From: Candidatus Thorarchaeota archaeon
Lineage (GTDB): Archaea > Asgardarchaeota > Thorarchaeia > Thorarchaeales > Thorarchaeaceae
Reading direction: 5' to 3'
Assembly (NCBI GenBank): GCA_048882325.1
Contig: JBHLRS010000010.1
Span: forward strand, 39,745-103,744
Length of the DNA: 64,000 bases
Within the stretch, counting starts at the first letter, position 1; each line of letters begins with the position of its first letter. The notes under the pieces are model-generated. The model worked only from the letters and a program-made list of their open reading frames with translations, made no database searches and had not been told where the DNA came from. The position numbers were made by a program, and so were the translations under genes. Below are positions 19,077 to 37,864 of this stretch, one piece after another.

Positions 19077-19079
19077 GAT

Positions 19080-19745
19080 CTACACATCCTTATTCTCTGG
19101 TTGCAATTCTGCATCGAGGTGTTCGATTAGTGTCTTGAACGTATCAAGACGCTCTGCAGCTATTTTCTTTCCGCGCTTGGTCACCATGCATGCAACAATG
19201 TCAGTGGCTAGAGGGATGAACTCGTGAAGGCTTTCCACTATCTCGCTTATGCTTCTTCCAGGAAATAGCCGGATACCATTCAGTAACCCTTGAGTGAATC
19301 CAATCATTCCAAGCTTCAGCAGCTTGTCCGCTTCCCAAAGAATTTGCGCTTCTATTGGTTCGAGAGGTTCTTTAATTGTTAGACCAACGTGCTTCTCGAT
19401 GACATCAGCTACATGTTCAATCGTATTTTGATTCACCTTTTCAGCACTGAGTATCTCCTTTGCCATCTCTGCACTAGCAACACCATGATGTTCTGCAGGA
19501 ATGCCTCCAATCCCTGGTTTTGCTAAGTCATGCAACCACGCTGCAAGTGTTATAACCTTGAGGTCAGCCTCAGTTCCTGTCGCCAAGACTTTCGCAAGGT
19601 CTACCACCTCATCAATATGGTCCAATCGGTAGTTATAGAGTGGAACTAATTGCTTCTCAGCTGCAGTACTCCACTCTTCCTTAGCCGCTTTTCGTGTTGA
19701 TGTCTCGACAATCTCTCTGAGTTTCTTCTCGATATCAGTAGTCAT
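19080..19745 (-). CDS. HD-domain phosphohydrolase
   Basis: H...AAWLHD...EHHG...H...EADKL. Confidence 0.85.
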   Translation of the reverse strand: MTTDIEKKLREIVETSTRKAAKEEWSTAAEKQLVPLYNYRLDHIDEVVDLAKVLATGTEADLKVITLAAWLHDLAKPGIGGIPAEHHGVASAEMAKEILSAEKVNQNTIEHVADVIEKHVGLTIKEPLEPIEAQILWEADKLLKLGMIGFTQGLLNGIRLFPGRSISEIVESLHEFIPLATDIVACMVTKRGKKIAAERLDTFKTLIEHLDAELQPENKDV

Positions 19746-19790
19746 TTTTGGTCAGCATATGTTCACAGTATTGACCTACTTATCAAAGTA

Positions 19791-20546
19791 TCAATGGGTT
19801 CTGATTTTTGAATAGAGCCTCAATGTGTTCTCAAGAGTTATCTCACGAACCTCCTCTTCATCTCTTCTCAACAATCGGGAGATTTCTCGAACAACAAGGG
19901 GTAAATTAGAAGGCACATTTCGTTCGCCCCTTTCAGGCGCAAGAACTGGACTGTCTGTTTCAATGAGAAGACGTTCAATAGCTACTGCTTTCACAAGTTT
20001 CTGTTTTTGGGGGGACCTAACCACTGATGTTGGGATTGAGAAATAGTATCCGAGGTCTCTTGAGGCAACTCGTGCTAGACTGGCTTTCCCATCGAATGCA
20101 TGTAGATGTACATCTCGGGCGTTGTTTTCTTCTAGTATTTCAAGAGCTTTCTTACCAGCAGAACGTGAGTGGACCTGGATTGGAATTTTCATAAGGTCTG
20201 CAAGACCAACCAGTTTCTCAAAACAAGCCCTCTGCTTCTTTCGCTCTTCATGATCCCTTACAAGATAGTGATCAAGGCCAGTTTCTCCGATTGATATGAA
20301 TCTGTCACTATTAGACTCAATCCAATCAATCGCTTGAGGACATATATCATATTGAGTGGGATTAAGCCCAACTGATGCGTATACATTTTTGTACTTCTCA
20401 GCAATCTTACATGCTTTGTTCCAAGATGCCTTTTCAATACCAGATGTTATAATAGAGATATCTAGTTCACGAGCGGTTTCAATAATAGAATCCCGGTCTG
20501 AGTCAAATTCCTTCGTTTCAAGGTGACAGTGCGAATCAACATATCG
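19791..20546 (-). CDS. tatD: TatD family deoxyribonuclease
   Basis: DSHCH, IGETGLD, HSR and ETDSP motifs; exact start uncertain (ORF track gives 20558). Confidence 0.88.
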   Translation of the reverse strand, partial: RYVDSHCHLETKEFDSDRDSIIETARELDISIITSGIEKASWNKACKIAEKYKNVYASVGLNPTQYDICPQAIDWIESNSDRFISIGETGLDHYLVRDHEERKKQRACFEKLVGLADLMKIPIQVHSRSAGKKALEILEENNARDVHLHAFDGKASLARVASRDLGYYFSIPTSVVRSPQKQKLVKAVAIERLLIETDSPVLAPERGERNVPSNLPLVVREISRLLRRDEEEVREITLENTLRLYSKIRTH

Positions 20547-20570
20547 TGGTTCGGTCACACCATGTCATCT

Positions 20571-22421
20571 CTATGACTTAATGTCAAACCAGTCAGGATA
20601 CTCTGGAACACCTCTAGTCCCAAAGTCATAGTTCCAGAAGACCATCTTGTTCTCACCTTGCTTTCTCTCAAACTCAGCCTCAACGAATAACCGTTCGACT
20701 GCCTCATTTCGGTCAGTCTTAATATACTTCCCAACAAGAGTGCTAGCACCCTGTTTCTTAGCTTCATTCATCAAATAGGTAAGGAATGTCTTCTCAACAG
20801 TTTTTCCCATTGCTCGACATGAGAAAGTGAGGACCTCCATATTCCACTTGCTATCTTGTTTGCGGACTAGTGACACTCCGATCAGGCCATACTCTCCATA
20901 CTTATCGTCAAGATTGACAACATAGATCTTATAGTCATCAGACTTGTAGAAGTCAAGAATCTGTTCCTTTGTATAGCGGATTGCCGTTGCATTCAACTGG
21001 TTGGTCCTTAGGATCAACTCAGTCACTCTACCCAGATTCTCTGGTTTCGCTTCGCGCATCCAGAGTTGCATGTTACACGCTCGTAGGAATGATTCTTTGT
21101 CGAAAAACTGTCTCTCTACACTATCTCTCATTGCCTGCTGAGCGTACATCATGACTCTCTTCGAACTTTCCTCTGTTATCTTGCCAACAGGTTCAAACTC
21201 TACTCTATTCAGAGCATGAAGAATCTCCGTGTCTGGCAGAACAAGTACCTCTGGCAAGAATGTCTTGATCTGGTCTCTTTCATACGGATTGTCATCAAAG
21301 AAAGCAATAGAGTCAATACCAATATTGAGTTCTTTGGCAATCTCTGCAAGGTTTTGCGCTTTGTCATTCCAATTTATCTTCTTAATGGCAAAGAGCTTGG
21401 AACTATCACCCAATATCTCATCCACTAAAGGAACCAATGTGCTGTCATTCTTGCTCGAGATTGCTAGGATAATTCCTCGTTTAGTAAGTAGCTCGAGTGC
21501 CTTCAAACGATTAGGGTGAAGATTAATCCCTTCGACACCATCATCTCTGAGAATCCCATCCCAAAGCGTATTATCAAGGTCTATCACTGCGCATTTGATG
21601 CGTCTTCCGTGTCCTGTGATTACCTTGAGATGGTTAATCAGGTCATGCGCAACGGTGACAGCCCCTTCTTGAGTAAGATGCTCATAAATGCCATCCGCAT
21701 CACTCTCTCGGATTTGATGGCCCACACCAGCAGATAGGAATGCTTCATCTATTGAGAGGACATAGATATCCTCTTCATTCTTACTCATCTCTAAGTACAT
21801 GAGGTCAAGATGTATGAGAAATTCTCGGAGACTGTAGGCATTGCTAAGATGCTTGTAGTCAAATCTTCCATGTGCTGGTCGGATTGTCAGGGGATAATTC
21901 ATCACAATGTAAACAGCTGAGAGCTTATCCCGAGCGACTTTAATTCCTTCTAGGATTCTATCCCTTGCTTGCATCAATTGCTCTTTTTGCCTAGTAAAAT
22001 CAGTTGCACCATGCTGAATATCAAAGATGTAGTTTCTAATGTCTTGGACATCACTCACAACAACGACACTTGGCGCAAATGAATAAAGTCCTCCCTTCTC
22101 GTCATTAAATGCCAGAAATGGATTTGATGGTTCACTATGATCAAATGTGTGATAGCATTGAGCACCGTTCGCCTCTAGGTACTCTTTCATGAATGATAAT
22201 TCACATCCCCCCACAAAGCCAATCTTTTGAGTAGAAAGGAACTCTCTGTCCGCCTCAGTTGCTTCAGCAGACATAGGAGGTCTAGCAGCTCTTCGTGTTT
22301 CCTCTGTGAGTCTTCGAATGATGTAGTTCCTATATTTCCTATCTCGGACTAGTCTTCTGACAATGTTCAGCATTCTCTGGACCTGCACATTCTTCACCAT
22401 TGTCTTGTCTAGTTCCACCAA
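20571..22421 (-). CDS. FkbH-like HAD-IIIC phosphatase/glyceryl transferase with C-terminal GNAT domain
   Basis: DLDNTLW, SSKN, KINWNDK, FFDDNPYE, RTNQLN, DKYGEYG, SCR. Confidence 0.9.
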   Translation of the reverse strand: MVELDKTMVKNVQVQRMLNIVRRLVRDRKYRNYIIRRLTEETRRAARPPMSAEATEADREFLSTQKIGFVGGCELSFMKEYLEANGAQCYHTFDHSEPSNPFLAFNDEKGGLYSFAPSVVVVSDVQDIRNYIFDIQHGATDFTRQKEQLMQARDRILEGIKVARDKLSAVYIVMNYPLTIRPAHGRFDYKHLSNAYSLREFLIHLDLMYLEMSKNEEDIYVLSIDEAFLSAGVGHQIRESDADGIYEHLTQEGAVTVAHDLINHLKVITGHGRRIKCAVIDLDNTLWDGILRDDGVEGINLHPNRLKALELLTKRGIILAISSKNDSTLVPLVDEILGDSSKLFAIKKINWNDKAQNLAEIAKELNIGIDSIAFFDDNPYERDQIKTFLPEVLVLPDTEILHALNRVEFEPVGKITEESSKRVMMYAQQAMRDSVERQFFDKESFLRACNMQLWMREAKPENLGRVTELILRTNQLNATAIRYTKEQILDFYKSDDYKIYVVNLDDKYGEYGLIGVSLVRKQDSKWNMEVLTFSCRAMGKTVEKTFLTYLMNEAKKQGASTLVGKYIKTDRNEAVERLFVEAEFERKQGENKMVFWNYDFGTRGVPEYPDWFDIKS

Positions 22422-23296
22422 TCAGGATGTATCAGAACCTGCACAATCTGACCTGGTTTAGCTTCATATATTCTGTCAAAGAGGTAATTACTGCCCAGTC
22501 TGCTTAAACGCTTCCCTCCTGCATCACTGAGGTACATATCATATTTCATGTCATATGCAGATGAAACCTTCAGAGCTATTTTGTCCACACTATCCCAGAT
22601 AGTTCGATTTTTGTAGTGTTTTTGACCATGTGCAGCTACTGCACTTACCGGAGCAATCTCACGTAGTTTTTCAATATCCGACTTGAGGAGCTCGATTGCC
22701 TCCTGTTTGTTTCCCTTAGCAACACTTAGCGTTTCATAATGCAGACCAATTCGAAAACCACTTTCCGCCAGATGAGCTACTATAGGCCGAGCTTCTTCGA
22801 AGCTATATTTCTCTGCATGAAGTCTAAAGAAGTAGGTCGAATGGATTCCATATTTCTTCTCAATCTCAGACATCTTCACAGTTCTTGATAACGAGATGTC
22901 AACATCATGACGTAAGCATACATTTACTCTCTCTGGGTCAATGTGTCCTTCAACATAATCATCAAGTGAGATAATCGAGAATGCTTCGGACTTCAGACCC
23001 TCGAGCAACTCCTTGAATCTAGCAAATGAATAATCGGACCACCATATCATTGAGTAAGGTATCAAAGGCAGAATGATTAGGAACCCAATAAATCTGAGCC
23101 ACATCGCTACCAGGAATTCAAACCAATTCCAAGTAGCATAAACCGCGATAAGGTATGATGCAACAATTAGAAACGGGTATAACCGAACCATGTCGAATAT
23201 CTGTGTAGCATAGCGGTATTGTTTCACAAGCGAGAAGATTACAAATCCAAATATCGCAATTGACAATCCCAGCAACAATACCTCAACAGGTTCCAT
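22409..23296 (-). CDS. Membrane-anchored polysaccharide deacetylase-like protein
   Basis: Three N-terminal TM helices; LRHDVD, GLHY, AHG, YLSD and HPDWW motifs. Confidence 0.75.
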   Translation of the reverse strand: MEPVEVLLLGLSIAIFGFVIFSLVKQYRYATQIFDMVRLYPFLIVASYLIAVYATWNWFEFLVAMWLRFIGFLIILPLIPYSMIWWSDYSFARFKELLEGLKSEAFSIISLDDYVEGHIDPERVNVCLRHDVDISLSRTVKMSEIEKKYGIHSTYFFRLHAEKYSFEEARPIVAHLAESGFRIGLHYETLSVAKGNKQEAIELLKSDIEKLREIAPVSAVAAHGQKHYKNRTIWDSVDKIALKVSSAYDMKYDMYLSDAGGKRLSRLGSNYLFDRIYEAKPGQIVQVLIHPDWWN

Positions 23297-23357
23297 TGTC
23301 CTGATTCCTTCCTAGCTGCTCACAAGTTTGACTTGATATAATCATTATGTCAAGACA

Positions 23358-24245
23358 CTAGTTGTACTCGTACCCCTTTAAAAACTGGAACTCTTTTACA
23401 CGCTCGAGGGTCTTCTTGATGAGATCATCATTCCATTCAGAGGTATCTCTTGTCGTCTTAGGTCTGTCAAAAAGAATGTCTGCACAGGCTTGTAGGTAGT
23501 CATCAGGTGCTTCGATACCAAGGAAATTGCAAACACTCTTCATTATTGTCTTTGAATCGTTGATAAGATCCTCAAGTTTGAATTCCAAGAAGAGAGTTGA
23601 ATCTATTTCCTTCTTCAACTTCTCAACCGTTTCACAAAGCGAGAAGTAGAAATCGATTGCTGTTGGTAGGTCAAGATTCTGTCTTTTACTGATTGTACTA
23701 ATATTGTCGAATGGGTTTCTGACTACGTGAATGATATAGACTGGCATATCAACCTCTTGTTCCAGAGCGTCAAGGAGGTTTGGAGAATCTTGCAAGCGTT
23801 GTGTACTCATCCCCCCCTTCTTATCCCCAATTACTATGAGTTCATGGTCATAGGTACCCTGCCATTGCCCCTTCACATCATATGCATATCCCGTCCAGGA
23901 TCTCCCTGTCTTCGAGAATTCATGGGAATTCCTTTGCATCATGTAAAAGAGACGCTCTTTGCTATAACCCCATTCCACAAAACCCAAGGCATCTAATTCA
24001 TGCGCAATGATCGCCTTCGGGTGTGCATCAATGAGAGACCCAACCAGACTGTGTCCGCTTCGGGGGTATCCAACAAACATGCAATACTTCTTCACTTGCC
24101 GATAGAGTTTCCTGTGTCTGAATCCACCAATCCTTGTGATGAATGATAGAAGGAACCGTCTTGCAAAGGTATACTTCGCAAGTCTGTTCAAAATACGAAG
24201 TCCAGTTCCTCTGACTCGTCTAGGAAAGAGAATCTCGTTCAGCAT
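23358..24245 (-). CDS. PAPS-dependent sulfotransferase (Sulfotransfer_3, TPST-like)
   Basis: 5'-PSB loop GYPRSGHS...DAHP; 3'-PB motif VRNPFDNIST. Confidence 0.9.
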   Translation of the reverse strand: MLNEILFPRRVRGTGLRILNRLAKYTFARRFLLSFITRIGGFRHRKLYRQVKKYCMFVGYPRSGHSLVGSLIDAHPKAIIAHELDALGFVEWGYSKERLFYMMQRNSHEFSKTGRSWTGYAYDVKGQWQGTYDHELIVIGDKKGGMSTQRLQDSPNLLDALEQEVDMPVYIIHVVRNPFDNISTISKRQNLDLPTAIDFYFSLCETVEKLKKEIDSTLFLEFKLEDLINDSKTIMKSVCNFLGIEAPDDYLQACADILFDRPKTTRDTSEWNDDLIKKTLERVKEFQFLKGYEYN

Positions 24246-24291
24246 CTTGGAATCGGGTCCGCATGGAATTCATGCACTAGTTAAACCTTAC

Positions 24292-25278
24292 CTAATCCTT
24301 CTCATACTCAAGCTGAATCAGCTTGTGTCTAAGAAGGATTTCAGCTTCCTTCTGCCGCTCTGGAGAAAGTCTAGTCTTCCATTTTCCTATCGAATCCGTG
24401 TTGATTGGTCTATGAACCCCCTCATGGTGCAGACGACCAGTGTCACCGAGAAGGCTTGCGACAACTTCTGGTTTCATCATCTCGTCATTATATGGAACAC
24501 CTAGGAACTTGCAGATTGACTTGATTGTTGGCTCAGGATCCGAAACCAGTGCCTCATACCTCACTTCTATATAATGGCTTTTTTGAATCTTCTGAGCGAA
24601 ATTTCGCGCGAGGTCAATGCTTTCACTCCAACGCTGACATGCCTCACCTAAGTCGGAGTAGATCCCGGATTTCAGATAGGACGACACAACATCCCGCCCA
24701 TCTCGAATCATATGGATGTAAAATGCATTTGGGAACACTTTATGTATCTCACTAAGGTGATAGGTGTTCAATGGAGTTTTATCTCCCCATCGAGAACCGC
24801 CTCCAAGATTCTCATCCCCGTAGGTGTGGTAGATGAGTTCTATAAGTGAAGCCAAGTTCCTCCTTTCATTTCCCAATGTCAGGGCCTTCTGATATAGAGG
24901 TGCTACGTTGAATTCCCAGGTTGGAAACTCTGGATGTGAGGCAAATTTTGAAATCACAAGTCGAGAAAGAATCCTCCATGGAATGAAGTTCATAATTCGA
25001 TATTCCTTGATTAGTGCTCCCAATACATAAGATTCGGGAGGAATGACGATATCCCCTTGAGCTACAAGAATTGCACGCATCAAAGTATTTCCTGATCTTC
25101 CAGATCCTATGATGAAGATTGGCGAAGATTTCAAACCTTTCGCTGATCTCAAGGGATGTCCCCTGAAGTTCTTGCCAAAGAGTGAGATCTTGTGCAGTAA
25201 AATCTTCATTCGTGAGGTCACTCGATTTATGTCCCCCTTGAAAACATTGCTCGAAAGGTGAGCATCTGAGAGAGCCAT
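24292..25278 (-). CDS. PAPS-dependent sulfotransferase (Sulfotransfer_3, TPST-like)
   Basis: GSGRSGNTLMRAIL, DKTP, IRDGRDVVSS, RYEALVSDP, SIGKW. Confidence 0.92.
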   Translation of the reverse strand: MALSDAHLSSNVFKGDINRVTSRMKILLHKISLFGKNFRGHPLRSAKGLKSSPIFIIGSGRSGNTLMRAILVAQGDIVIPPESYVLGALIKEYRIMNFIPWRILSRLVISKFASHPEFPTWEFNVAPLYQKALTLGNERRNLASLIELIYHTYGDENLGGGSRWGDKTPLNTYHLSEIHKVFPNAFYIHMIRDGRDVVSSYLKSGIYSDLGEACQRWSESIDLARNFAQKIQKSHYIEVRYEALVSDPEPTIKSICKFLGVPYNDEMMKPEVVASLLGDTGRLHHEGVHRPINTDSIGKWKTRLSPERQKEAEILLRHKLIQLEYEKD

Positions 25279-25384
25279 ATGGATGTTTCTATTTGATTAG
25301 GAATTGGTACTTGCCTTCAACCTACATAGGGTTTAAAACCAGTCCAAATCAATTCGCATCAACTCGCATGGAGACCGACCAAAA

Positions 25385-26428
25385 TTGAGTATCGCCAAGT
25401 GGATGATGAAGCAGTATTGGCGAATCGGAACCATTAGAGTCTGGATGAGTTTGAGTATGGGTATGCTCTCACTTGGAAAACTCTATTATCAAGACATCCC
25501 GCCTCTTGCTGACTTGGGATTTTTCGGAGCTTTGATTCTGGGTTCTATCTTGATTCTGGTCTTTATGGGAGTTGGTTGGCTTTATGATGAAAAGGCCAAA
25601 CTGTGGAAAGCCAAGCAACAGGTCAACATCGACAGATTCCCGTACCGATGTGTTCCCAATATTAGGGCTTTTTCAATGGACTATCCAATTCTCTTCGCTT
25701 TTCTCACAAGTCTGTTTAGAATATTCGATAAGTTGGGACTTGACACGGAACCTCTGAATGATCTTTCAGAGTATCTGACGAAGAACTACAGCTTCAGAGC
25801 TGAGAAGAGTGACATGGATGAGTCAAAGGATCTCGGAGACCAGTTCATGGAAAATCGGCCCTTCAGAACTGGAGGTGATCCTCCAGGAGGTCCAGTGAGT
25901 CTTACAGCAAGAGTTGCGCTTGGTTTTGAAACCCAAAGTCTTAGATTTGTCTGGATTCAAGAATTGACAGGAATGGCTCAGGATGCTTTGGTCATAACAG
26001 GTGTCTATGTAATTTTCCTGTTCCCTAATGTTGTCGTAGATGGAGTAGTACCCCTGAGTTATATGCTACTAGGAATACTCATTGTCGCATTTCCAGTTAT
26101 GTTTCTTATAGTGGGACTTGGCTGGTTCTATGACAGAAAGCTGAAGATTTGGTCTGTTGACAGGATAGTAAGAGTTGAAAGAACACCTTATAGCTATCTA
26201 GCTGAGCCAAACATCTACACTATTTTCATGCCATATTATATGACCCTCTTCAGGATACTTGGAGATGTGCAAAAGAAAGAAGGACTAGATACAACTGAGG
26301 TAGATAAAATCCTGACATTCCTTGATGCTTATTTCAAGTTTGATGTGGCCAAAACCAAGGATATGGAAAGGGCACGTCAACTGAGACGAGATTATGGGAC
26401 ACTTTTCGCAACAAAGGAGGCAAAATAG
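25385..26428 (+). CDS. Membrane protein with two internal repeats
   Basis: Two copies of TM-TM-GWxYD..W....(D/E)RxPY. Confidence 0.75.
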   Translation: MSIAKWMMKQYWRIGTIRVWMSLSMGMLSLGKLYYQDIPPLADLGFFGALILGSILILVFMGVGWLYDEKAKLWKAKQQVNIDRFPYRCVPNIRAFSMDYPILFAFLTSLFRIFDKLGLDTEPLNDLSEYLTKNYSFRAEKSDMDESKDLGDQFMENRPFRTGGDPPGGPVSLTARVALGFETQSLRFVWIQELTGMAQDALVITGVYVIFLFPNVVVDGVVPLSYMLLGILIVAFPVMFLIVGLGWFYDRKLKIWSVDRIVRVERTPYSYLAEPNIYTIFMPYYMTLFRILGDVQKKEGLDTTEVDKILTFLDAYFKFDVAKTKDMERARQLRRDYGTLFATKEAK

Positions 26429-26429
26429 A

Positions 26430-26948
26430 ATGAGAATTAGAAAGTGGATAATGAAACAGCAATGGAGAGTTCTTCAGATTCGAGGTATCTGGGGACTATT
26501 CTATGGTGTGTTGGTTCTCGCAGGACTTTATGTTGAGTATGTTCCATATTTCAACACACTGGGCGCTCTTGGTCCTCTCGCATTCGCAGGATTAATCCTC
26601 CTCATCTTTCTCATTCTTGGTTATATCTATGATCGGGTTCTAGTTATGTGGGCTGCATCTCAAGAGGTAACCATGGAGCGAAATCCCTTCATGTATGTGC
26701 CCAGTCCAAAGGACCACATCTTCTGGTTTCCAATCTATTCTGCAATGCTTGATGCTTTGGATGAATTAGCTGCAAAATATGGCTTGGATGCAAGTGAGAT
26801 TAAAGATACAAAGGAATACTACTCTGTACTGCAGAAATATCGTCCTGAGAGAAATCAAGATATTGATGATGCAATTGAACTAAGAGATGCATACCTCAAG
26901 AAGCATCCATTCATTAAGGATCCAACGAAAGAGTTTGAAGTCACCTGA
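26430..26948 (+). CDS. Single-repeat paralog of the upstream membrane protein
   Basis: KWIMKQQWR and GYIYDR..W....ERNPF; GGAGG SD before ATG 26430. Confidence 0.75.
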   Translation: MRIRKWIMKQQWRVLQIRGIWGLFYGVLVLAGLYVEYVPYFNTLGALGPLAFAGLILLIFLILGYIYDRVLVMWAASQEVTMERNPFMYVPSPKDHIFWFPIYSAMLDALDELAAKYGLDASEIKDTKEYYSVLQKYRPERNQDIDDAIELRDAYLKKHPFIKDPTKEFEVT

Positions 26949-26962
26949 GGTTCAACAAAACA

Positions 26963-27802
26963 ATGAATCAAGTAGCAGACCGTGAACTTTCCACGCTGAA
27001 GGCAATTGTAGTTTCGGGGGGACTCATACTCAACTCATACCGAGGAAAAGTCATTAATCAACCAAAGGAGTCAGATCTTCCTCGTGAACAGGTACAAGAG
27101 AGTTCCACAGCCCACACAATAGTGGATGATCTTGTTCAGGACGTTGCATTACAGATTCTACATTCAACGTTTCCTGATATCGCGGTGAATGCAGAAGAGG
27201 ATACCCCACGGGTCAAGCTATTCTCCTCTGACAGAACGGGCTTCTGCTTTCATTTGGACCCATTGGATGGAACTCTGGCTTATACACGTAATCGAGATGA
27301 CTTTGCCATTGGAGCAGCATTTTCAGATAATTTGACATTTGTTTCCAGTGCGATCTATTTCCCGGCACAAGACCGACTCTATTCTGCAAAACGGGGATTT
27401 GGAACGAATGTCGAGGATGGACTTGGTAACCCCTTGGTCTTCCTATCTGACAGCGACCCTGAACCTTATTTCACACAGAAGAGATGCGAGCGACTTTTGC
27501 CAATAATTGAGAAAATGAACTTGACCAAACTTGACATCATGAGTGCTCATCAGAGTATGATAGCTCTCGCTGAGAAACGGACCAAAATTCTTATGTATAG
27601 AATGGCAAGTCCACATGACTTTGGGATACCTCAAGTGATTCTAGAGGAGGCTGGAGGTATTTGTTCAGATCAATACGGAAACGAAATTACCTACTCTCCG
27701 AAATTTAACAGAATTCCCTGGTTCTTTGGCTTCGCGAATGTTGAAGTGAAGAAGTATTTCTTTGAACTCTTGGATGAAACAGATATTACTCTTGAGGAAT
27801 GA
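26963..27802 (+). CDS. Inositol monophosphatase family, probable PAP 3'-phosphatase (CysQ-like)
   Basis: AEE, DPLDGT and HD...ILEEAGG motifs; lies near two sulfotransferases. Confidence 0.8.
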   Translation: MNQVADRELSTLKAIVVSGGLILNSYRGKVINQPKESDLPREQVQESSTAHTIVDDLVQDVALQILHSTFPDIAVNAEEDTPRVKLFSSDRTGFCFHLDPLDGTLAYTRNRDDFAIGAAFSDNLTFVSSAIYFPAQDRLYSAKRGFGTNVEDGLGNPLVFLSDSDPEPYFTQKRCERLLPIIEKMNLTKLDIMSAHQSMIALAEKRTKILMYRMASPHDFGIPQVILEEAGGICSDQYGNEITYSPKFNRIPWFFGFANVEVKKYFFELLDETDITLEE

Positions 27803-27860
27803 CATCTTGCAAGCCCGAAAGGATTTTAACATCACCGAGTCCGTTGACCGCTTGATCTCC

Positions 27861-28967
27861 ATGGCTGAGTCAGGCATGTCGAACTCGTTGAAAGGATACA
27901 TTCGGAGGTTCCTTGCCCATCTGAGAAAAAGACTTCCAATCTATTTCATCCTGATGATTATCGTATTTGGTGTCCTCTTCGTGTTCAGAGATGATATCTA
28001 TGACACGTTCATCCGGCGACATGAAGAGAAGACGTTCTACTTCGATGAGCACGGTCTCCCCATGACAGACTATGGCTGGACTCAGGGGGTATATGTTGGC
28101 CCTCAGTTCAATCCACTTGTCATCGCTAGAGGAGCTCAAGTGTATTATGATCAGATGCTAGATGGAAACACCACAGCGGCGGGCTTTTTGAACTACACAT
28201 TGAACTGGCTTGTGGAAAATCGGGTGACGCAGACAATAGACAATGAGAGTGGACTTGTGACTGTTTCTCACTGGCTTTACAATTTTTCAATATATGACCA
28301 ACCTGCTGGTTGGTACTCTGCCATGGCAGAAGCGGAGATTGCTCATACCCTCGCACAAGCATACGACTATTCTGGAAATCCAATATATCTCCAGATTCTC
28401 AATGAAACACTAAATGGATTTGAAGTTTCGCAGGAGATAGGAGGTTCAATGTTAATAATCGATGAAGTGGGTAACTGGTATCCAGAGGTCATTGTTCCAT
28501 CGACTGTGGATCCAACTTATCCAAAAAGAAGAATTCTCAATGGATTCCTACTAGGACTTGAAGACCTGTATCTAGCAAATGAATACCTCAACCAGACTCG
28601 CATCAAGCGATTGTTCGACAATGGAATCAATTCTGCTCTCCAGACTTTGCATCTTTATGAGGCTCCAGAGAACTGGACATTCTATCAACTGAACCCAGTA
28701 AAGTACGCATCAGTTGGCTATCACCATGTTCACATCAGTATCACTGGAATTTTGTATAATATCACAGGAATCACTGAGTTTCAGACATATCACGAACGAT
28801 GGAAATCCTGGACGGTTGTTCCACCGCAAGCAGATGTTGACCTGACTGAACGGCGCCTGAAGGAGATTAGTTATGGACTGCTTTTCATGTCGATTGCAGC
28901 TGGAATGATTCTTCTTATTGACTTCATGCAGATGCAAGTCCGCACTCGTGTTACAAGCAATTCCTAA
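27861..28967 (+). CDS. D-glucuronyl C5-epimerase family protein anchored by N- and C-terminal TM helices
   Basis: WYSAMA, WYPE, ILNGF and YHHVHI motifs match the GLCE C-terminal domain; eight NxS/T sequons. Confidence 0.85.
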   Translation: MAESGMSNSLKGYIRRFLAHLRKRLPIYFILMIIVFGVLFVFRDDIYDTFIRRHEEKTFYFDEHGLPMTDYGWTQGVYVGPQFNPLVIARGAQVYYDQMLDGNTTAAGFLNYTLNWLVENRVTQTIDNESGLVTVSHWLYNFSIYDQPAGWYSAMAEAEIAHTLAQAYDYSGNPIYLQILNETLNGFEVSQEIGGSMLIIDEVGNWYPEVIVPSTVDPTYPKRRILNGFLLGLEDLYLANEYLNQTRIKRLFDNGINSALQTLHLYEAPENWTFYQLNPVKYASVGYHHVHISITGILYNITGITEFQTYHERWKSWTVVPPQADVDLTERRLKEISYGLLFMSIAAGMILLIDFMQMQVRTRVTSNS

Positions 28968-29959
28968 GAGGGTCTTGCGTAGTCATAGATTCGGTGTATC
29001 TTAGGTGAGTTTGCTTCCCACACATAAGTGGTGCGAGCGTGGTTCATGATTTTTGGTCCTGGTACATCTGACAAAGAGTGCACCAACTCTGGTAGCTCGT
29101 CATAAGTCTTGAATGGATGAACATAGGGATTGTCTGTTAATGACTCACCCAGCGTGTATGTTATCAACACTTGTAGACCTGCGTTAAGATATTCATAGTT
29201 CTTGTTCGGGTCACAATACTTGTGAAATGGATGCGGAAGCCATGGTGTGAGACCAACTTTGTATTTGGTCAGAGTATTCATCATCTCTCTATGAGAGATT
29301 CCTGTTAGAATGTCAAAATTCAGTATGTCTTGGAGTCCTGTCATGTCTCGATGTAGCGAAAAACGTGTGTTCTGGAAATCACTACCAATGTATACTGCTC
29401 CGACTCTCCTTTCCGGACTTGTCAATCCCTCCACCTCCGAACAGAGTGGATAATTGTGTGTCACTTCAACATGTGAAGCAATTTCTCGATGTTCCTTAGC
29501 GATATTCTCACTAACGGTAAGCACCGGATAGCTCTCCAATATACTCCTTTCCCATTTGGGTGTCACGCTGATCAGAGGTTTACCAGCCATGCGACGTAAA
29601 AACGGTCTAGTTTCAAATCGGAAATCTTGTTTGCTCCAATATTCGTGGTCGTCATAGATAACTGGATAGTCGGTATCCAGCATCATTGCTGCTGCAATCA
29701 GATTGTGCGCGTGCACCACGTCTGGTTTGATTGCATCAATCTGTTTGAGCCATCGTTTCCTAATTCTCGAGTCGTATACAATACGAAGGTGACTCCCGAA
29801 TGAAACATGAAATGCTTCTGAGAATGCGCTATGTGCCTGCCCTCTAATTGGTCCTCCTCCAAGAAACAACTGTTCATGACCTTTTTTTTTCATAGAGAGT
29901 GCTGTCTTCTCTATTCTGGAGTCTGGTAGACCACCGTGAGAGGTATGCAGGATTCTCAA
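28964..29959 (-). CDS. Glycosyltransferase, GT-B/GT4-like
   Basis: DSRIEK, VVHAHN, YDDHE, PNKNYEYLNAG. Confidence 0.8.
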   Translation of the reverse strand: MRILHTSHGGLPDSRIEKTALSMKKKGHEQLFLGGGPIRGQAHSAFSEAFHVSFGSHLRIVYDSRIRKRWLKQIDAIKPDVVHAHNLIAAAMMLDTDYPVIYDDHEYWSKQDFRFETRPFLRRMAGKPLISVTPKWERSILESYPVLTVSENIAKEHREIASHVEVTHNYPLCSEVEGLTSPERRVGAVYIGSDFQNTRFSLHRDMTGLQDILNFDILTGISHREMMNTLTKYKVGLTPWLPHPFHKYCDPNKNYEYLNAGLQVLITYTLGESLTDNPYVHPFKTYDELPELVHSLSDVPGPKIMNHARTTYVWEANSPKIHRIYDYARPS

Positions 29960-29974
29960 GATTTAATCTCCTTC

Positions 29975-31078
29975 TCAGAGCATCACATTATTCTTAATCA
30001 CAATATCTCCGGAGGCTATGATTTTAGCAATCTTTTTTGATGCTTTGCCATCTCCATATACGGAGGGATCGTTATTCAGTTTCATGTCCCACATCTCCAT
30101 AGCTCGTCTATGAATGTCGTTGGCTTTAGGAGCGACCAATACATTAGCACCTGCTTCCAATGTTTCAATCCACTCGCTGTTATCTCTAATTGTAACACAA
30201 GGGGTATTGAGTAAATATGCTTCTTTCTGGAGACCTCCAGAATCTGTCAGCAAAAGAGATGATCTACTGACCAATGCCATCATCGTGGTGTAAGGAATTG
30301 GTTCAATAACTTTGACATTCGAGGGTAAGGCTAATCCTATGTCTTTAATCATTTTCTTTGTCCGTGGATGTATTGGAAAGACAATGTGGTGTTCAATCAT
30401 TCCAAGACCATCGATGATTCGTTTTAATCTCGCAGGAAAGTCTACGTTTTCCCTTCTGTGCATCGTGAGGACTCCAAATTTCTCCCCAGATATTCCTAGC
30501 TCATTCATAGCGTTCTCTTGGAAAGATGCATCATTGAATACCTCAAGACGTTTTTTCAGAATATCATACATCGTGTCGCCAGTATGGAAGACCATTCCTC
30601 GAACTTTCTCATCTTCAAGATTCTTAACAGCAAGAGTTGTAGGCGCGAATAGACCAGCAGCTCCATGGTCAATCAACCGTCGATTGATTTCTTCCTGCAT
30701 GAACATATCATAGCTTCTAAGTCCAGACTCAAGATGGCATGTAGGGATATCCATCTTGAATCCTGTAAGTGCCGCTCCCAAGGCTGAATTTGTATCACCT
30801 GGAACAATTAGATAGTCAGGTGTGTTCTTAGATAGAACTTCTTCAAGTTTGGAGATGACACCATATGTTTGGTATGAGCTTGTCCCACTTCCTACCTCCA
30901 AGTTTTGATCTGGCTTACGGATTGAAAACTCACTTACAAACTGGTCAGCTAGTTCATAATCATAATGTTGTCCAGTGTGTACGAACCTTACATCAAGATC
31001 CTCTTGTTCGAGTGCTTGAAGTACAGGAGCTGATTTGATAATCTGTGGACGAGTCCCCGTAACAACTGTAACTATCAT
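29975..31078 (-). CDS. wecB: Non-hydrolysing UDP-N-acetylglucosamine 2-epimerase (WecB/WbpI family)
   Basis: GTRPQIIK, TGQHYD, GDTNS, HLESGLRS, HRREN, DSGGLQKEA, YGDG. Confidence 0.92.
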   Translation of the reverse strand: MIVTVVTGTRPQIIKSAPVLQALEQEDLDVRFVHTGQHYDYELADQFVSEFSIRKPDQNLEVGSGTSSYQTYGVISKLEEVLSKNTPDYLIVPGDTNSALGAALTGFKMDIPTCHLESGLRSYDMFMQEEINRRLIDHGAAGLFAPTTLAVKNLEDEKVRGMVFHTGDTMYDILKKRLEVFNDASFQENAMNELGISGEKFGVLTMHRRENVDFPARLKRIIDGLGMIEHHIVFPIHPRTKKMIKDIGLALPSNVKVIEPIPYTTMMALVSRSSLLLTDSGGLQKEAYLLNTPCVTIRDNSEWIETLEAGANVLVAPKANDIHRRAMEMWDMKLNNDPSVYGDGKASKKIAKIIASGDIVIKNNVML

Positions 31079-31216
31079 TGTAGTCCATCCTCCTTAAAGC
31101 GAGTGGGAGTACTCATCAGTGTGCCCTTTGAGTATTCTATTGAAGGTTATGGTACAATGATTGTTTCAAGCAAGAATTAAAAATGTGACAACACCCGACT
31201 CAACCGGGTTTGGAAT

Positions 31217-32527
31217 ATGACGAAAGGCACTCTAGCTGTCGTAGGTCTTGGATATGTCGGGCTTCCCGTAGCTGCGAAATTTGCGGAAGCTGGATTCGAT
31301 GTCACAGGCATTGACATAGTAAAGGAAAAGGTCGATATGATCAATGCAGGACAGTGTCCTATCGCAGGTGATGAACCGAATCTTCCTGAGTTGATTGAGA
31401 AAGTCATCAAAGAGGGCAGTCTGAAAGCCACATTAAGTCATGAACCGATTAAGAGCGCGGACTACATCATCATCGTTGTCGAAACTCCCTTCGACCTTCC
31501 TAGCAGAGAACCCTACTACTCTGCTCTCCGTTCAGCATCAACTAGTGTTGGCCAAAATCTATCAAAGGGGTCTCTTGTGATTGTAGAGTCAACTGTTGCT
31601 CCAGGTACTGTCAACTCCATTGTAAAACCCATATTGGAAACTGAATCCGGCTTGAAGGCCGGTGATGACTTCATGTTAGCGACTGCTCCGGAACGTGTTA
31701 TGCCTGGAAAATTGCTGTACAACCTTACGAACCTGAACCGAACGATTGGTGGATTTGATAAGAAAAGTACTGAAACAGCACTCAAGTTCTACTCTGAGAT
31801 AGTAAAGGGAGAACTCTATCCAACTGACATACTGACCGCTGAAGTGGTGAAGACCACAGAAAATGCATATCGCGATGTTCAGATTGCCTTCGCAAACGAG
31901 ATTGCATTACTTTGTGAGAACATGGGTGTCGATGTCTATGAAGTACGCGAGTTGGTGAACAAGTCGCCATTCAGACAGATGCATCTACCTGGTGCTGGAG
32001 TTGGAGGTCATTGCTTGCCAAAGGACTCCTGGCTGTTGGCATTCGGAGCTCGCGGAGGATACACACCACGTCTACTGGCAACTGCAAGAGAAATCAATGA
32101 TGGGATGCCACGCCACTTGAGCCACTTGTGTGAGGATGCTTTGAAGGATGCAGGCCGTGGTGTCTATGGTTCTCGTATCACTGTACTTGGGATAGCTTAT
32201 CTCGAGAACTCTGATGACACGCGAAATTCTCCTTCATTCACACTCATCAAAGCGCTTGAGGTTCTTGGTGCTCACCCAGTCCCTCATGATCCCTATGTTC
32301 GTGCGGTAAAGGAGATTCATGGAATGAAACCGTTGGATGACCTCTACGGAGCTTTGAAGGACTCAGACTGCATGGTTTTGGTTACAGCACATGATGAGTA
32401 TTCAGATATTGATCTTGACAAGGCCAAGAGTCTCATGCGAACACCTGTCATTGTTGATGGAAGAAAGGTCTTCGATAAAGACAAATGCATGAAGAAGGGC
32501 TTTATTTTCAGAGCGATTGGTCGTTAG
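31217..32527 (+). CDS. UDP-N-acetylhexosamine dehydrogenase (WecC/WbpA family)
   Basis: GLGYVG, ESTVAPG, PERV.PG, ENAYRDV, GVGGHCLPKD, DTRNSP. Confidence 0.92.
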   Translation: MTKGTLAVVGLGYVGLPVAAKFAEAGFDVTGIDIVKEKVDMINAGQCPIAGDEPNLPELIEKVIKEGSLKATLSHEPIKSADYIIIVVETPFDLPSREPYYSALRSASTSVGQNLSKGSLVIVESTVAPGTVNSIVKPILETESGLKAGDDFMLATAPERVMPGKLLYNLTNLNRTIGGFDKKSTETALKFYSEIVKGELYPTDILTAEVVKTTENAYRDVQIAFANEIALLCENMGVDVYEVRELVNKSPFRQMHLPGAGVGGHCLPKDSWLLAFGARGGYTPRLLATAREINDGMPRHLSHLCEDALKDAGRGVYGSRITVLGIAYLENSDDTRNSPSFTLIKALEVLGAHPVPHDPYVRAVKEIHGMKPLDDLYGALKDSDCMVLVTAHDEYSDIDLDKAKSLMRTPVIVDGRKVFDKDKCMKKGFIFRAIGR

Positions 32528-32554
32528 ACTTGAAAGAATGGAGAGATCGGTCCT

Positions 32555-33610
32555 TTGAAGAAGAGAGTCCTTCTCATCGGTAATGAACCGAGAGACATGA
32601 TTCGTCTTCGACGTACTTATGGTAGTCTAAAAGAGATAGGTGTGGATGTGAAGGTCTTCAATCCTTACAGAAAACCAAGTGGCCGGCCAAGAATCATCAA
32701 GGGAGCAATCAGATATCTTGTAATAACGCTCCAAGTTCTTCTAACTAGGGCTGACATCTATCACTTCTTCAATGTCCCTGACATCATCGGACTTCCACTC
32801 ATAGCAAAGCGAGGTGTCGTGGTATACGATGTCCGTTCACCTTGGAGTGGCGCTATTAAGGAAACCTTCGGGATTGCACCGTTAGCTAAGATTGCAGGTC
32901 TTATGGAACGCCTCATGACACGAACAGCAGATTATGTTGTGGCTGTGAATCGACCTCTTGCAGAGCGCGCTCGATTGTTTGGAGGAAAACGGATCCTAAT
33001 CTCCCCAAATTATCCCCTCCCTGACTTTGGGCCATCTCGTAGCCGTAAAGAGATGAGAGAGATGCTTGGGTTGGGATCATCCCCGACAGTGCTTTACCTC
33101 GGAAAGATCACCAAGGTGGAGGGAGTGTCACTTCTGATGAACGTGATCCGGAAGACATGCAAAACACATCCAAGCGTGAAGTTTCTGATTGTCGGTGGCG
33201 GACCTCAAGTTGGTGTCTTCAAGAAGTTCGTTTCTGATGAAGAACTTGAGGCGAACATAGTGATGACAGGATGGGTTCCTCACTCTGAGGTGGCTGATTA
33301 CATCAATGCTGTTGACTTATGTCTTCTACCTAGGCAGTGGGACAGCTACTCCAACTACATTGGACCAGACTCAGTATGGAAAGCGGGAGAATACCTTGCT
33401 CTTGGAAAACCTGTGGTAGCTCCAAAGATGGGTGGATTTGCTACTGCCAAGTTCCCCGTCATACCTGCAGACCCATCAGAGATGGCTGACGCTGTAATTT
33501 CATTCATCTCTGAACCAACTAAGAAACCGGTTGGTGAGAGACCCTCCTGGAGGATTAGCCACGAACGATTGAAACGTCTCTACACTCTTCTGGGTGCTAC
33601 TGGGGGATAG
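32555..33610 (+). CDS. Glycosyltransferase family 4
   Basis: YLGKITKVEG, GGG, GWVPHSEV, KAGEYLALGKPVV. Confidence 0.88.
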   Translation: MKKRVLLIGNEPRDMIRLRRTYGSLKEIGVDVKVFNPYRKPSGRPRIIKGAIRYLVITLQVLLTRADIYHFFNVPDIIGLPLIAKRGVVVYDVRSPWSGAIKETFGIAPLAKIAGLMERLMTRTADYVVAVNRPLAERARLFGGKRILISPNYPLPDFGPSRSRKEMREMLGLGSSPTVLYLGKITKVEGVSLLMNVIRKTCKTHPSVKFLIVGGGPQVGVFKKFVSDEELEANIVMTGWVPHSEVADYINAVDLCLLPRQWDSYSNYIGPDSVWKAGEYLALGKPVVAPKMGGFATAKFPVIPADPSEMADAVISFISEPTKKPVGERPSWRISHERLKRLYTLLGATGG

Positions 33611-33670
33611 CATGCAATACTCTCACAACACATATATCGTATCACTATCCTAACTAGATTCGGTGGGATT

Positions 33671-35542
33671 ATGGGATCAAGACAAAGTTCCATTTTGATA
33701 TGTGTGATAATTCTCTCTGGGATTCTATACCCATTGATTACTCACTCAAATGGTCTAGTTCAAAGTGGAACGCATCAGGGTCTTAGTAATGGAGCAATAC
33801 ATGCTCAGAGCGGTATTACACATTCTTGGTTCCATGATGGATCTAACATGACTGGTTTTGGAAGTCCAATCGCGAGTATGCCATCAGTAGGCAGCATTTC
33901 ATCCAGTGGCTCATACCTTTATGCATCTGACGTTGGGTCTGGAAGTGGGTGGCATGGCCCAGTGATGTCCTATGCATTAGAAGAGTCGTTTAAGGTATCC
34001 CAATTGACATCTTTCGACATCGATGTCGGGTTTGACTGTTACTCTGATACCAGTAGACTTGGTGCTGTGGATGTGTTTCTCCACGACTCGAATGAGGATG
34101 TCATCTGCAGGTACGTCATTTCAGATGCATGGGCTGACGATCGTCAGCTGAAATTACCATTTACATGGTGGTTTGCTGATGAAACTGGTTACACCACTCC
34201 CTATAGTGAACCTGACTGGGTCACTTTCTCGCCTTATCATGAAACACTGACGCTCTCTGATACTATGACGGGTTTTCAGGTAGTTCAGCCTGATATTGGA
34301 ACATTCGAGTTTACTGTATCAGAGCAGGCAGATTTGGAAAGGATCGTATCATATGTAACAGTGGCATTCTATGGATATGAGAGCTGGACCTACTGCGAAG
34401 AGGTCTTTCTTCATTCGATTCTCCTTGAATGGACTGGGGATAGCGTTGTTGAGGAACCGATAACATCGGCCTGGCATCATGATTGTTCTAACACAACTGA
34501 TCTGACCTATAACAACACCTTCCCACTTCCGTGGCTGAATGGAGTTAACACATGGACCATAACGACTGGAGAGATGCTTTCATCGGGTGACTATCTCTAC
34601 TTTGAAAATATCCCTTCTGCATCATCAGGTTGGCATGGGCCACTGTGGGTCCATGAGTTCGAGGAACCATTCTCAGTTAGCCAGATTCATAACTTCACTG
34701 TTGACCTGTTCGTCGACAATTCATTAGCAGCTTATGGAGGGAAAATACAGGTCATATTACTTGGTGAAGAGTTCAGACCTGTTTTCAGGGCATATGTTGG
34801 GGATGCATGGGATAATGTAAATGAGGGTCATATCTTCGCAGAATACATGGAGTCTGATGGAACCTACCATCGACATGGGCTTACAGATGTAGGCTCTTTC
34901 ACCAGTTTTGATGGAGTAATGCAGTTTACTTATGATGAACTACTTGGTGTTTCAGCTTTTGTACACGGGTATGGAATAGAGTCTCTCTTCTCTCCGGAAG
35001 GATCTGAGCTTACTCGAAAGGTCACTCATGTAATGATCTTGACTGGTCGACTCTCTGGACTCACCTACATGCCATCCCAAGTTCATGATATCTATGTTGA
35101 TTGGGTGTCCGAAGGTGTGTCTCCACCTGAAGATGTCCTTACGATTGACCATCCATTGGATATTTTCTACTATGAAGGAGAAACAGGGAACAACATCACT
35201 TGGACTCCTACATCAATCTATCCGGGTGGTTACTTGCTTTATGTCAACGATGAAGGAGTCGAAGCAGATTCATGGTTAGGCGACCCAATTGTGGTTGATG
35301 TTGATGGTCTGGATCCCGGAGTCTATAACTACACAATTGTTGTGTTCAACACCAACCTTGAGTATGTTACTGACGAAGTAGTGGTCACGGTAGAAACCCC
35401 CGGTTCACCAACTGCTGAGGGAACTCTGATTATTATTGGCATCAGCATCGGTTCTATTGTTGTAATTGTTGTGATCATCGGAGCTGTCTGTCGAAGCAAA
35501 GGAGAAGGTGTTATCGAAAGCCCTAGTGGATATGAATGGTAA
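33671..35542 (+). CDS. Secreted surface protein with two lectin-like repeats, Ig-like domain and TM anchor
   Basis: Signal peptide; repeats WFHDGSN/WHHDCSN, SGWHGP x2, DAW x2; Ig-like GLDPGVYNYT; C-terminal TM. Confidence 0.75.
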   Translation: MGSRQSSILICVIILSGILYPLITHSNGLVQSGTHQGLSNGAIHAQSGITHSWFHDGSNMTGFGSPIASMPSVGSISSSGSYLYASDVGSGSGWHGPVMSYALEESFKVSQLTSFDIDVGFDCYSDTSRLGAVDVFLHDSNEDVICRYVISDAWADDRQLKLPFTWWFADETGYTTPYSEPDWVTFSPYHETLTLSDTMTGFQVVQPDIGTFEFTVSEQADLERIVSYVTVAFYGYESWTYCEEVFLHSILLEWTGDSVVEEPITSAWHHDCSNTTDLTYNNTFPLPWLNGVNTWTITTGEMLSSGDYLYFENIPSASSGWHGPLWVHEFEEPFSVSQIHNFTVDLFVDNSLAAYGGKIQVILLGEEFRPVFRAYVGDAWDNVNEGHIFAEYMESDGTYHRHGLTDVGSFTSFDGVMQFTYDELLGVSAFVHGYGIESLFSPEGSELTRKVTHVMILTGRLSGLTYMPSQVHDIYVDWVSEGVSPPEDVLTIDHPLDIFYYEGETGNNITWTPTSIYPGGYLLYVNDEGVEADSWLGDPIVVDVDGLDPGVYNYTIVVFNTNLEYVTDEVVVTVETPGSPTAEGTLIIIGISIGSIVVIVVIIGAVCRSKGEGVIESPSGYEW

Positions 35543-37713: not shown

Positions 37714-37800
37714 TACTATCAAGTGCTTGCTGACTTAAAAAACGCTAATGATTTACAGCAAAGACCTATATACATACAAGAGTAGCACGGGGGAACAATT

Positions 37801-37849: not shown

Positions 37850-37864
37850 GGATGGAGTAAAAAA

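Follow-up and report, generated by a model that had tools for sequence, protein, structure and literature searches.

A hypervariable gene island in a Thorarchaeota genome and the sulfated, acidic surface glycan that it probably produces

The window analysed here, a stretch of 64,000 nucleotides, comes from a Candidatus Thorarchaeota archaeon (contig JBHLRS010000010.1), which bears out a preliminary description made from the sequence that had assigned it to a probable Asgard archaeon. It carries a glycan gene island bounded on the left by a block of CinA/MoCF-like, HD-domain and TatD genes (18258..20558, minus strand, identified by Pfam) and on the right by an Alg13-like and Alg14-like split glycosyltransferase (35564..36474, minus strand; Alg14 5.9e-18, Glyco_tran_28_C 5e-11), which the PssE and PssD models match at 104 bits, slightly below their cut-offs. 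Both flanks are conserved. The left-hand block also borders islands with other contents in three relatives (L003, L035 and L036), while the Alg13/14-like pair is near-core, its Alg14-like member being found in 23 of the 28 congeners; in several relatives whose contigs extend far enough, it also marks the edge of the island. All the genes listed in the preliminary description were recovered as open reading frames and all its gene families by profile matches, except that the deacetylase call is upheld by a CE4 fold (AF2/Foldseek). Four genes were absent from that list and encode an FkbH-domain protein (20571-22421), two orphan membrane proteins (25385-26948) and a secreted membrane-anchored protein (33671-35542). 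Neither a flippase nor a polymerase was recognised within the island; AglB/STT3 is present in the same genome.

Two PAPS-type sulfotransferases, both predicted to have no transmembrane (TM) helix, are encoded on the minus strand; both score above the gathering threshold and carry 5'-PSB and 3'-PB motifs. The first, ST_A (24292..25278; Sulfotransfer_3 6e-36, 125 bits), has motifs GxxRSGxTL and RDGRDvvsS that align with TPST1, and its best PDB matches are TPST1/2 and the CurM sulfotransferase, so that the solved structures closest to it are those of protein-tyrosine and polyketide sulfotransferases, although acceptors are not readable from sequence. The second, ST_B (23358..24245), is more divergent (Sulfotransfer_3 1.9e-8, 35 bits against a cut-off of 27), and its PRSG and RNPxD..S motifs align with the sulfotransferase domain of a polyketide synthase (4GOX); an orthologue with 57% identity adjoins the epimerase in the congener G041. 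The preliminary description had proposed a search of the genome for PAPS synthesis by sat and cysC, and both genes were found outside the cluster, on contig C17 (305 and 204 bits respectively), where they form one operon with a third sulfotransferase. This enzyme, ST_A and ST_B are the only three sulfotransferases in the whole genome, and a sulfotransferase of ∼380 aa adjoins cysC in all eight genomes of the genus with a strong cysC match. A search of the genome found no sulfite reductase, and the PAPS therefore appears to serve sulfation.

An inositol-monophosphatase-family, CysQ-like phosphatase (26963..27802, plus strand; Inositol_P 2e-21) forms one operon with the epimerase, and the sulfotransferase operon runs divergently from it with 106 bp between the two. 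Its best NCBIfam subfamily is CysQ (TIGR01331), at only 50 bits against a cut-off of 228.8, which is short of equivalog level, and from this family placement we consider it a candidate phosphatase for PAP (3'-phosphoadenosine-5'-phosphate). It is an accessory second paralogue in its genome, and of the 28 congeners only G000 and G041 carry it, which are the two that hold both the cluster sulfotransferases and the epimerase.

The epimerase itself (27807..28967, plus strand; start uncertain, at 27762, 27807 or 27861) is a GLCE-family (PF06662) protein and putative uronyl C5-epimerase set between two TM helices, with a C5-epim_C match (Pfam 5.7e-36, 124 bits) above the gathering cut-off of 23.3. 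The top eight PDB matches retrieved by Foldseek with its AF2 model (pLDDT 90) are all GLCE (4PXQ and 6HZZ best; E 9e-12 to 7e-11). Using the catalytic residues of GLCE in human numbering (PMC13308652), we found four of the five to be kept, with E242, N260, Y308 and Y320 corresponding to E499, N510, Y560 and Y578. The fifth, Tyr500, is replaced by valine throughout the subclade (V243 in the window protein, and likewise in P0002-P0009), while the sister Thorarchaeota clade retains Tyr at this position. This valine, the missing N-terminal beta domains of GLCE, and second-tier fold matches to cellobiose and glucose 2-epimerases and GH76/GH88 enzymes could point to some other six-hairpin enzyme (a lyase, hydrolase or 2-epimerase) or to a glycan-binding protein. 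We regard this as very unlikely, however, given that the whole family conserves E242, N260, Y308, Y320, H321 and H324, that about a quarter of PF06662 representatives also have a residue other than Tyr at the 500 position (Y 108, V 20, F 10, C 8, I 5), which is thus not universally required in the alignment, and that the E-value of GLCE is six orders of magnitude better than that of any other structural match.

The catalytic domain of the epimerase is predicted to lie outside the cell. The two TM helices that flank it are basic at their cytoplasmic ends, and the protein has 2.2 sequons per 100 aa, where the cluster's TM-less enzymes have 0-0.9; all topology calls given here derive solely from hydropathy scanning combined with the positive-inside rule. 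Signal peptides are found in many prokaryotic PF06662 homologues (Raedts et al., 2011). Against 6HZZ the protein scores 43 bits, while two bacterial-type homologues score higher to GLCE (65-83 bits), and this comparison of scores, in which those two homologues were checked, revealed no special link to eukaryotes. That the eukaryotic glycosaminoglycan-modifying machinery goes back, by descent or by transfer, to an Asgard toolkit of PAPS sulfotransferases, a PAP phosphatase and, on the lumen-equivalent side, a GLCE-type epimerase seems to us extremely improbable.

Downstream of the epimerase lie genes for sugar nucleotides and glycosyltransferases, with WecB and WecC homologues adjacent to the C5-epimerase and a glycosyltransferase. 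WecB, a non-hydrolysing UDP-GlcNAc 2-epimerase (29975..31078, minus strand; TIGR00236, 295 bits against a cut-off of 210), is the only copy in the genome (a single PF02350 match). The WecC-like UDP-N-acetylhexosamine (ManNAc-type) 6-dehydrogenase (31217..32527, plus strand) matches the archaeal UDP-ManNAc dehydrogenase model at 387 bits and the AglM UDP-Glc dehydrogenase model at a lower 242 bits. The cluster's own sugar precursor, as predicted from these assignments, is UDP-ManNAcA, not UDP-GlcA. WecB adjoins PF06662 genes in 10 of 16 loci, including homologues of 29-37% identity with overlapping genes, and D-ManNAcA to L-GulNAcA would therefore be the likelier reaction of the epimerase, with GlcA to IdoA possible; in several relatives WecB occurs with no WecC nearby. 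A GT4-like glycosyltransferase (28964..29959, minus strand; Glyco_transf_4 N-domain 1e-7) is convergent with the epimerase and overlaps its 3' end, and homologues of this gene are the most constant epimerase neighbour (9 of 12 Asgard loci, the window counted). A second GT4 enzyme is encoded at 32555..33610 on the plus strand (Glyco_trans_1_4 1e-17, Glycos_transf_1 5e-16).

At the other end of the island is a membrane-anchored, CE4-fold deacetylase-like protein with three N-terminal TM helices (22409..23296, minus strand). It has no Pfam match, PF01522 included, but the top 23 Foldseek matches of its AF2 model (pLDDT 94) in the PDB are CE4 deacetylases (E about 5e-5). Seven residues are invariant (H130, D131, D133, R158, H186, H223 and H290), of which D131, D133, H186, H223 and H290 are compatible in residue identity, as distinct from geometry, with the CE4 Asp/His metal and catalytic set. 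Its catalytic domain is predicted to be cytoplasmic. The gene immediately follows that of ST_B, in the same orientation, and adjoins the one for the FkbH-domain (HAD-IIIC) protein (minus strand; TIGR01686 FkbH, 259 bits against a cut-off of 147).

The preliminary description had read these genes by the logic of animal heparan sulfate, in which a GlcA-HexNAc chain would be N-deacetylated by the CE4 enzyme, N- or O-sulfated, and epimerised from GlcA to IdoA. Every enzyme class lies within 11 kb, the CE4 gene stands next to that of ST_B, and a Ugd-type UDP-glucose dehydrogenase paralogue is encoded elsewhere in the genome (on C43); to our knowledge, moreover, all characterised PF06662 enzymes act on GlcA. 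We nevertheless find this path quite unlikely. The precursor genes of the cluster point to UDP-ManNAcA, and in place of a UDP-GlcA supply and a GlcA/GlcNAc co-polymerase the cluster has a WecC-type dehydrogenase and transferases of the GT4 and Alg13/14-like kinds only, with no match to the heparosan-type synthase families EXT, KfiA/C and PmHS. Nor is the deacetylase coupled to the sulfotransferases. It is missing from G041, which has the orthologous ST_B, phosphatase and epimerase, and is present in five congeners that have no sulfotransferase, its constant partner being FkbH, an 82%-identical copy of which stands beside a CE4-like gene in the metagenomic congener L005, which has no sulfotransferase. 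The sulfotransferases apparently act in the cytoplasm and the epimerase outside it, and the order of steps would thus differ from that of heparan sulfate. Of the sulfated, epimerised hexuronate surface glycan first proposed, the sulfated acidic glycan is supported and the heparan-sulfate logic is not.

Across relatives, the epimerase was found in 12 of 400 Asgard genomes, and together with the cluster sulfotransferases and the phosphatase in two of 28 congeneric species. The epimerase occurs without cluster sulfotransferases in G003, G020 and L005, and other sulfating congeners have no epimerase. Co-conservation, which the preliminary description had offered as a check, is thus partial: the phosphatase tracks the cluster sulfotransferases, but the CE4 gene does not, and within this variable island the modules occur independently of one another. 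This independent distribution, and the closeness of ST_A to TPST and CurM-type enzymes, would fit genes that are mere neighbours in a recombination hot spot, with the epimerase, GT4 and WecB serving one glycan and the sulfotransferases and phosphatase a different acceptor (protein tyrosine, a lipid, a small molecule and another glycan are candidates). We think this unlikely, since the phosphatase sits in the epimerase operon facing the sulfotransferase operon, the sulfotransferase-phosphatase-epimerase set recurs in G041 despite rearrangement, a distant locus (L031) unites WecB, GT4, epimerase, sulfotransferase and a Wzx-type flippase, and all the neighbours are glycan genes.

On balance we lean towards the reading of the island as a hypervariable surface-glycan region of this Thorarchaeota genus, with its content here as one species-specific filling. 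Such a filling, in a scheme that we hold somewhat more probable than otherwise, would make a sulfated, C5-epimerised uronate glycan from UDP-ManNAcA; we infer its acceptor, order of steps, topology and sugar identity as follows. WecB and the WecC-type dehydrogenase would supply UDP-ManNAcA, and the GT4 enzymes with Alg13/14 would assemble a lipid-linked oligosaccharide on the cytoplasmic face. The two soluble sulfotransferases would O-sulfate this oligosaccharide with PAPS from the sat-cysC operon on the other contig, the accessory IMPase-family phosphatase clearing the inhibitory product PAP. After export, the membrane-tethered, outward-facing GLCE-family enzyme would invert C5 of the incorporated uronic acid, and the finished glycan would appear at the surface, carried by proteins or in the form of a polymer. 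The probable product of the island is a sulfated, acidic glycan of the cell surface; it is most likely linked to dolichol and could be an N-glycan. Archaeal glycan tailoring is a plausible description of the island's role.

Several known systems resemble this scheme in part. Like animal GLCE, the thorarchaeal epimerase belongs to PF06662, has the C-terminal helical domain of GLCE as its best fold match (E about 1e-11), keeps four of the five catalytic residues, and is predicted to be membrane-tethered, its catalytic domain facing what corresponds to the Golgi lumen. Unlike GLCE, with which it shares ∼24% identity over ∼228 columns, it has no beta-hairpin or beta-sandwich domains, has Val for Y500 and two TM anchors, and lies in a neighbourhood that suggests ManNAcA rather than GlcA. 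The N-glycan of Halobacterium salinarum is dolichol-linked and sulfated, on the cytoplasmic side, and contains a C5-epimerised uronic acid. Its epimerase Agl32 is reported to be cellobiose-2-epimerase-like and to be missed by BLAST with GLCE, and its sulfotransferases VNG1056C and VNG1057C to be sulfatase-fold proteins, whereas the island uses GLCE-type and PAPS-type families; the resemblance is functional, not one of homology. [quoted passage not shown] VpsJ is described there as a new epimerase class, and is likened to the PF06662 island by description and not by sequence; VPS is bacterial, Wzx/Wzy-dependent, and carries glycine and acetyl groups but no sulfate. Putative archaeal PF06662 homologues of similar size (about 300-400 aa) have been listed in Methanocaldococcus, Thermococcus and Korarchaeum, with no Asgard member and no mention of sulfotransferases (Raedts et al., 2011).

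Animal matrices are characterised by uronate glycans that are sulfated and C5-epimerised. Among archaea we know of them from Halobacterium only, where they are made with unrelated enzymes. Should the scheme hold, the island would be the first archaeal case with the canonical families (a GLCE-type epimerase and PAPS sulfotransferases) and a dedicated PAP phosphatase, as well as the first Asgard case of such a glycan. It gives a concrete prediction for Asgard surface chemistry, and suggests ManNAcA as the substrate of uncharacterised prokaryotic PF06662 enzymes. The trait is accessory and patchy, and is not a forerunner of heparan sulfate; because it is accessory as well as patchy, it has no bearing on eukaryogenesis.

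The remaining island genes encode proteins for which family searches gave no match. One, on the plus strand (33671..35542), is a secreted protein with an internal duplication, a hydrophobic N-terminal leader (weak, 1.61 in the hydropathy scan), a C-terminal TM anchor and six sequons, and is a possible glycan acceptor. The orphan membrane pair, also on the plus strand, begins with a protein of 347 aa made of two copies of a 2-TM unit (25385..26428), for which 17 homologue clusters were found, the sole cluster with a source name being from Thorarchaeota. Its gene occurs in 10 of 28 congeners, also in islands that contain neither sulfotransferases nor the epimerase. The second protein (26394..26948) has one copy of the same unit, with 34% identity to the first unit of its partner, and in the congeners searched its gene always follows a homologue of the first.

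All the genes on which the preliminary description had built a heparan-sulfate-like pathway were recovered by ORF mapping and family scans in the surface-glycan region between a TatD-HD-CinA flank and an Alg13/Alg14-like pair. First in transcription order on the minus strand are two PAPS-type sulfotransferases, ST_A (24292-25278; Sulfotransfer_3, 6e-36) and ST_B (23358-24245; Sulfotransfer_3, 1.9e-8), followed by a 295-aa deacetylase-like membrane protein (22409-23296), an FkbH-domain protein (20571-22421; TIGR01686, 259 bits) and then the TatD, HD and CinA-like genes. Divergent from ST_A across 106 bp, the plus strand encodes a pair of orphan membrane proteins (25385-26948), a phosphatase of the Inositol_P family (26963-27802) and the C5-epim_C protein (ending at 28967), a GLCE-family (PF06662) C5-epimerase. 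A GT4-like gene convergent with the epimerase, together with WecB, occupies 28964-31078 (minus); beyond it come, on the plus strand (31217-35542), genes for a WecC-type dehydrogenase, a GT4 enzyme and a secreted 623-aa protein with a membrane anchor, and on the minus strand the Alg13/Alg14-like pair (35564-36474). The host's description as a probable Asgard archaeon is supported by the same-genus Thorarchaeota genome G041, which carries a syntenic locus, and by genes for Nre and topoisomerase VI in the window.

This region is a hypervariable island. The same flank and Alg13/14-like pair enclose quite different contents in relatives, such as nonulosonic-acid genes at one locus (L036) and GT2, PMT_2 and CapK-like genes at another (L035). 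An Alg14-like gene is found in 23 of the 28 congeners and a strong epimerase score in four (the window's own genome, G000, and G003, G020 and G041), while cluster-type sulfotransferases, phosphatase and epimerase co-occur only in G000 and G041. Co-conservation of the proposed pathway holds for these genes in two genomes only, and fails for the CE4-like (deacetylase-like) gene. The steadiest partner of the epimerase is the convergent GT4-like gene, present at 9 of 12 Asgard loci. At a metagenomic locus (L031; metagenome 3300033156, contig Ga0366836_1006518), a distant epimerase homologue (29% identical) is accompanied by WecB, GT4, a flippase of the Wzx type and a Sulfotransfer_1 gene; the combination of epimerase and sulfotransferase is therefore not unique to the genus.

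Sulfation calls for a source of PAPS, and its synthesis is indeed encoded on another contig of the genome, C17, leaving this part of the proposal standing. There, sat (305 bits) adjoins cysC (204 bits), with a 377-aa sulfotransferase directly after (operon at C17:2843-5689, locus L001); this enzyme, ST_A and ST_B are the only three sulfotransferases in the genome. PAPS in this lineage looks like an accessory trait serving sulfation, because a ∼380-aa sulfotransferase adjoins cysC in all eight of the 28 genus species with a strong cysC match, and the window's genome (93% complete) yielded no match to the sulfite reductase family NIR_SIR. Since neither ST_A nor ST_B has a TM segment or signal, both should act in the cytoplasm. 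The phosphatase scores below the CysQ equivalog cut-off and is a second, accessory paralogue in the genome, a status that fits a PAP-phosphatase role, for which it is a candidate only.

The AF2 model of the epimerase (pLDDT 90) best matches zebrafish and human GLCE (E ∼1e-11; 24% identity to GLCE over ∼228 columns), followed by six-hairpin 2-epimerases (∼1e-5), and the helical catalytic domain is the only GLCE domain present. The catalytic residues of GLCE are E499, Y500, N510, Y560 and Y578 (PMC13308652); the window protein keeps E242, N260, Y308 and Y320, and the Y500 position is Val throughout its subclade ('WYPEV'). The sister Thorarchaeota clade retains 'WYPEY', and Tyr is missing from this position in about a quarter of 159 PF06662 family representatives. 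Two hydrophobic helices flanking the domain, the basic character of both termini and a sequon density of 2.2 per 100 aa (vs 0-0.9 in cluster enzymes that lack TM segments) lead us to infer that the epimerase domain faces outward; many prokaryotic PF06662 homologues carry signal peptides (Raedts 2011, PMC3068255). Weak partial PF06662 matches (20-25 bits, profile positions 33-83 only) were also seen in ORFs of ∼335-386 aa, mostly 365, from G004, G010, G017, G018 and G021 (loci L009-L014), which may be a divergent family paralogous to the epimerase.

A particular affinity of the epimerase to eukaryotes was considered and rejected: its sequence scores 43 bits against human GLCE, lower than two bacterial-type representatives do against GLCE (65-83 bits), and nothing suggests vertical descent common to the eukaryotic and window enzymes. 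Of 400 Asgard species genomes, 12 gave a PF06662 match, and nine of these 12 belong to the family of the window organism. A full-library search returned 1183 clusters of epimerase homologues, just seven at E <= 1e-30, and a profile search of genome contigs with a narrower epimerase alignment recovered three Thorarchaeota loci only. A 631-aa Asgard homologue (in G110) is without GLCE-like architecture.

As to which uronic acid is epimerised, conversion of D-ManNAcA to L-GulNAcA is favoured over that of GlcA to IdoA, because WecB/WecC-type genes adjoin the epimerase across loci and Vibrio cholerae VPS offers a precedent. WecB, the sole copy in the genome, scores above its equivalog cut-off; the in-cluster dehydrogenase fits the archaeal model for UDP-ManNAc dehydrogenase (387 bits) better than that for UDP-Glc dehydrogenase (242 bits), and a clear Ugd-type paralogue is present on another contig. 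Usable flanks were available for 16 epimerase loci; ten of these have WecB next to the epimerase, including homologues only 29-37% identical in which both genes overlap, and three more have a WecC-like gene there. In VPS, ManNAcA is added by WecB- and WecC-type enzymes and a transferase, and L-GulNAcA is then made on the lipid-linked intermediate by a proposed C5-epimerase (PMC13463779).

The deacetylase-like protein had no match in the Pfam scan, and its predicted structure bears out a CE4 fold: in the model built with 31 homologues (pLDDT 94), the 23 best PDB matches are all CE4 deacetylases, and invariant His, Asp and Arg are compatible with a CE4 site. Seven of 28 congeners, G041 not among them, carry the gene, which is paired with FkbH and has homologues in Thor-, Hod-, Odin- and Heimdallarchaea. 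It is a separate module rather than a partner of the NDST kind, and N-deacetylation coupled to N-sulfation is rejected because of the distribution of CE4-like and sulfotransferase genes. The FkbH-domain and CE4-fold genes (20571-23296, minus) overlap by 13 nt. Scans of nearby ORFs revealed no gene for an acyl carrier protein. The two proteins could together N-deacetylate a lipid-linked sugar and then reacylate it.

The orphan proteins (25385-26948, plus) consist of a 2-TM unit repeated 2+1 over two adjacent genes, the sole named homologue being from Thorarchaeota; an ESM Atlas search gave no lead. A role as PAPS/PAP channel is rejected, because the pair, found in 10 of 28 congeners, also occurs in islands without sulfotransferases. 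It may instead have a general part in export or handling. In the inspected loci (L035, L036) it lies on the TatD side of the island regardless of sugar chemistry.

Archaeal precedents exist for the chemistry. The N-glycan of Halobacterium salinarum is sulfated and contains IdoA, but the epimerase (Agl32) and sulfotransferases behind it have folds unrelated to those of the island's enzymes (PMC12624080, PMC13308652, PMC11980604). Archaeal PF06662 homologues were catalogued in 2011 without functional data (PMC3068255), and our literature search on Asgard with sulfotransferase or glucuronyl C5-epimerase found no paper on such a system. The product is most likely a sulfated acidic glycan with a C5-epimerised hexosaminuronate; canonical enzyme families would produce it, as a trait that varies between species. 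Of the preliminary description, the gene inventory survives, and so does the sulfated acidic glycan as the probable product. The island does not encode a homologue of the heparan-sulfate pathway and provides no evidence on the origin of eukaryotic glycosaminoglycans; it plausibly represents a further form of glycan tailoring in archaea.

Several neighbouring genes merit mention. In both tandem genes at 16149-16766 and 16841-17416 (plus), an N-domain with an Mrr-like restriction-endonuclease fold is joined to an RNA polymerase Rpb5/RpoH C-domain, an arrangement that recalls the two-domain eukaryotic Rpb5, and the fusion is kept at the same position in L035 and L036. The 623-aa secreted protein (33671-35542, plus), unmatched in family scans, has a C-terminal TM anchor and an internal duplication (two SSG.YLY...SGWHGP...F.VSQ blocks); its gene stands where relatives have, beside Alg13/14, a GlcD-like FAD oxidase paired with a CCG-domain protein. 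Just outside the island, a 900-aa protein (37748-40450, plus) with N- and C-terminal TM segments, 13 sequons and DUF4350/GldG-like and ThuA-like regions is probably a large surface protein.
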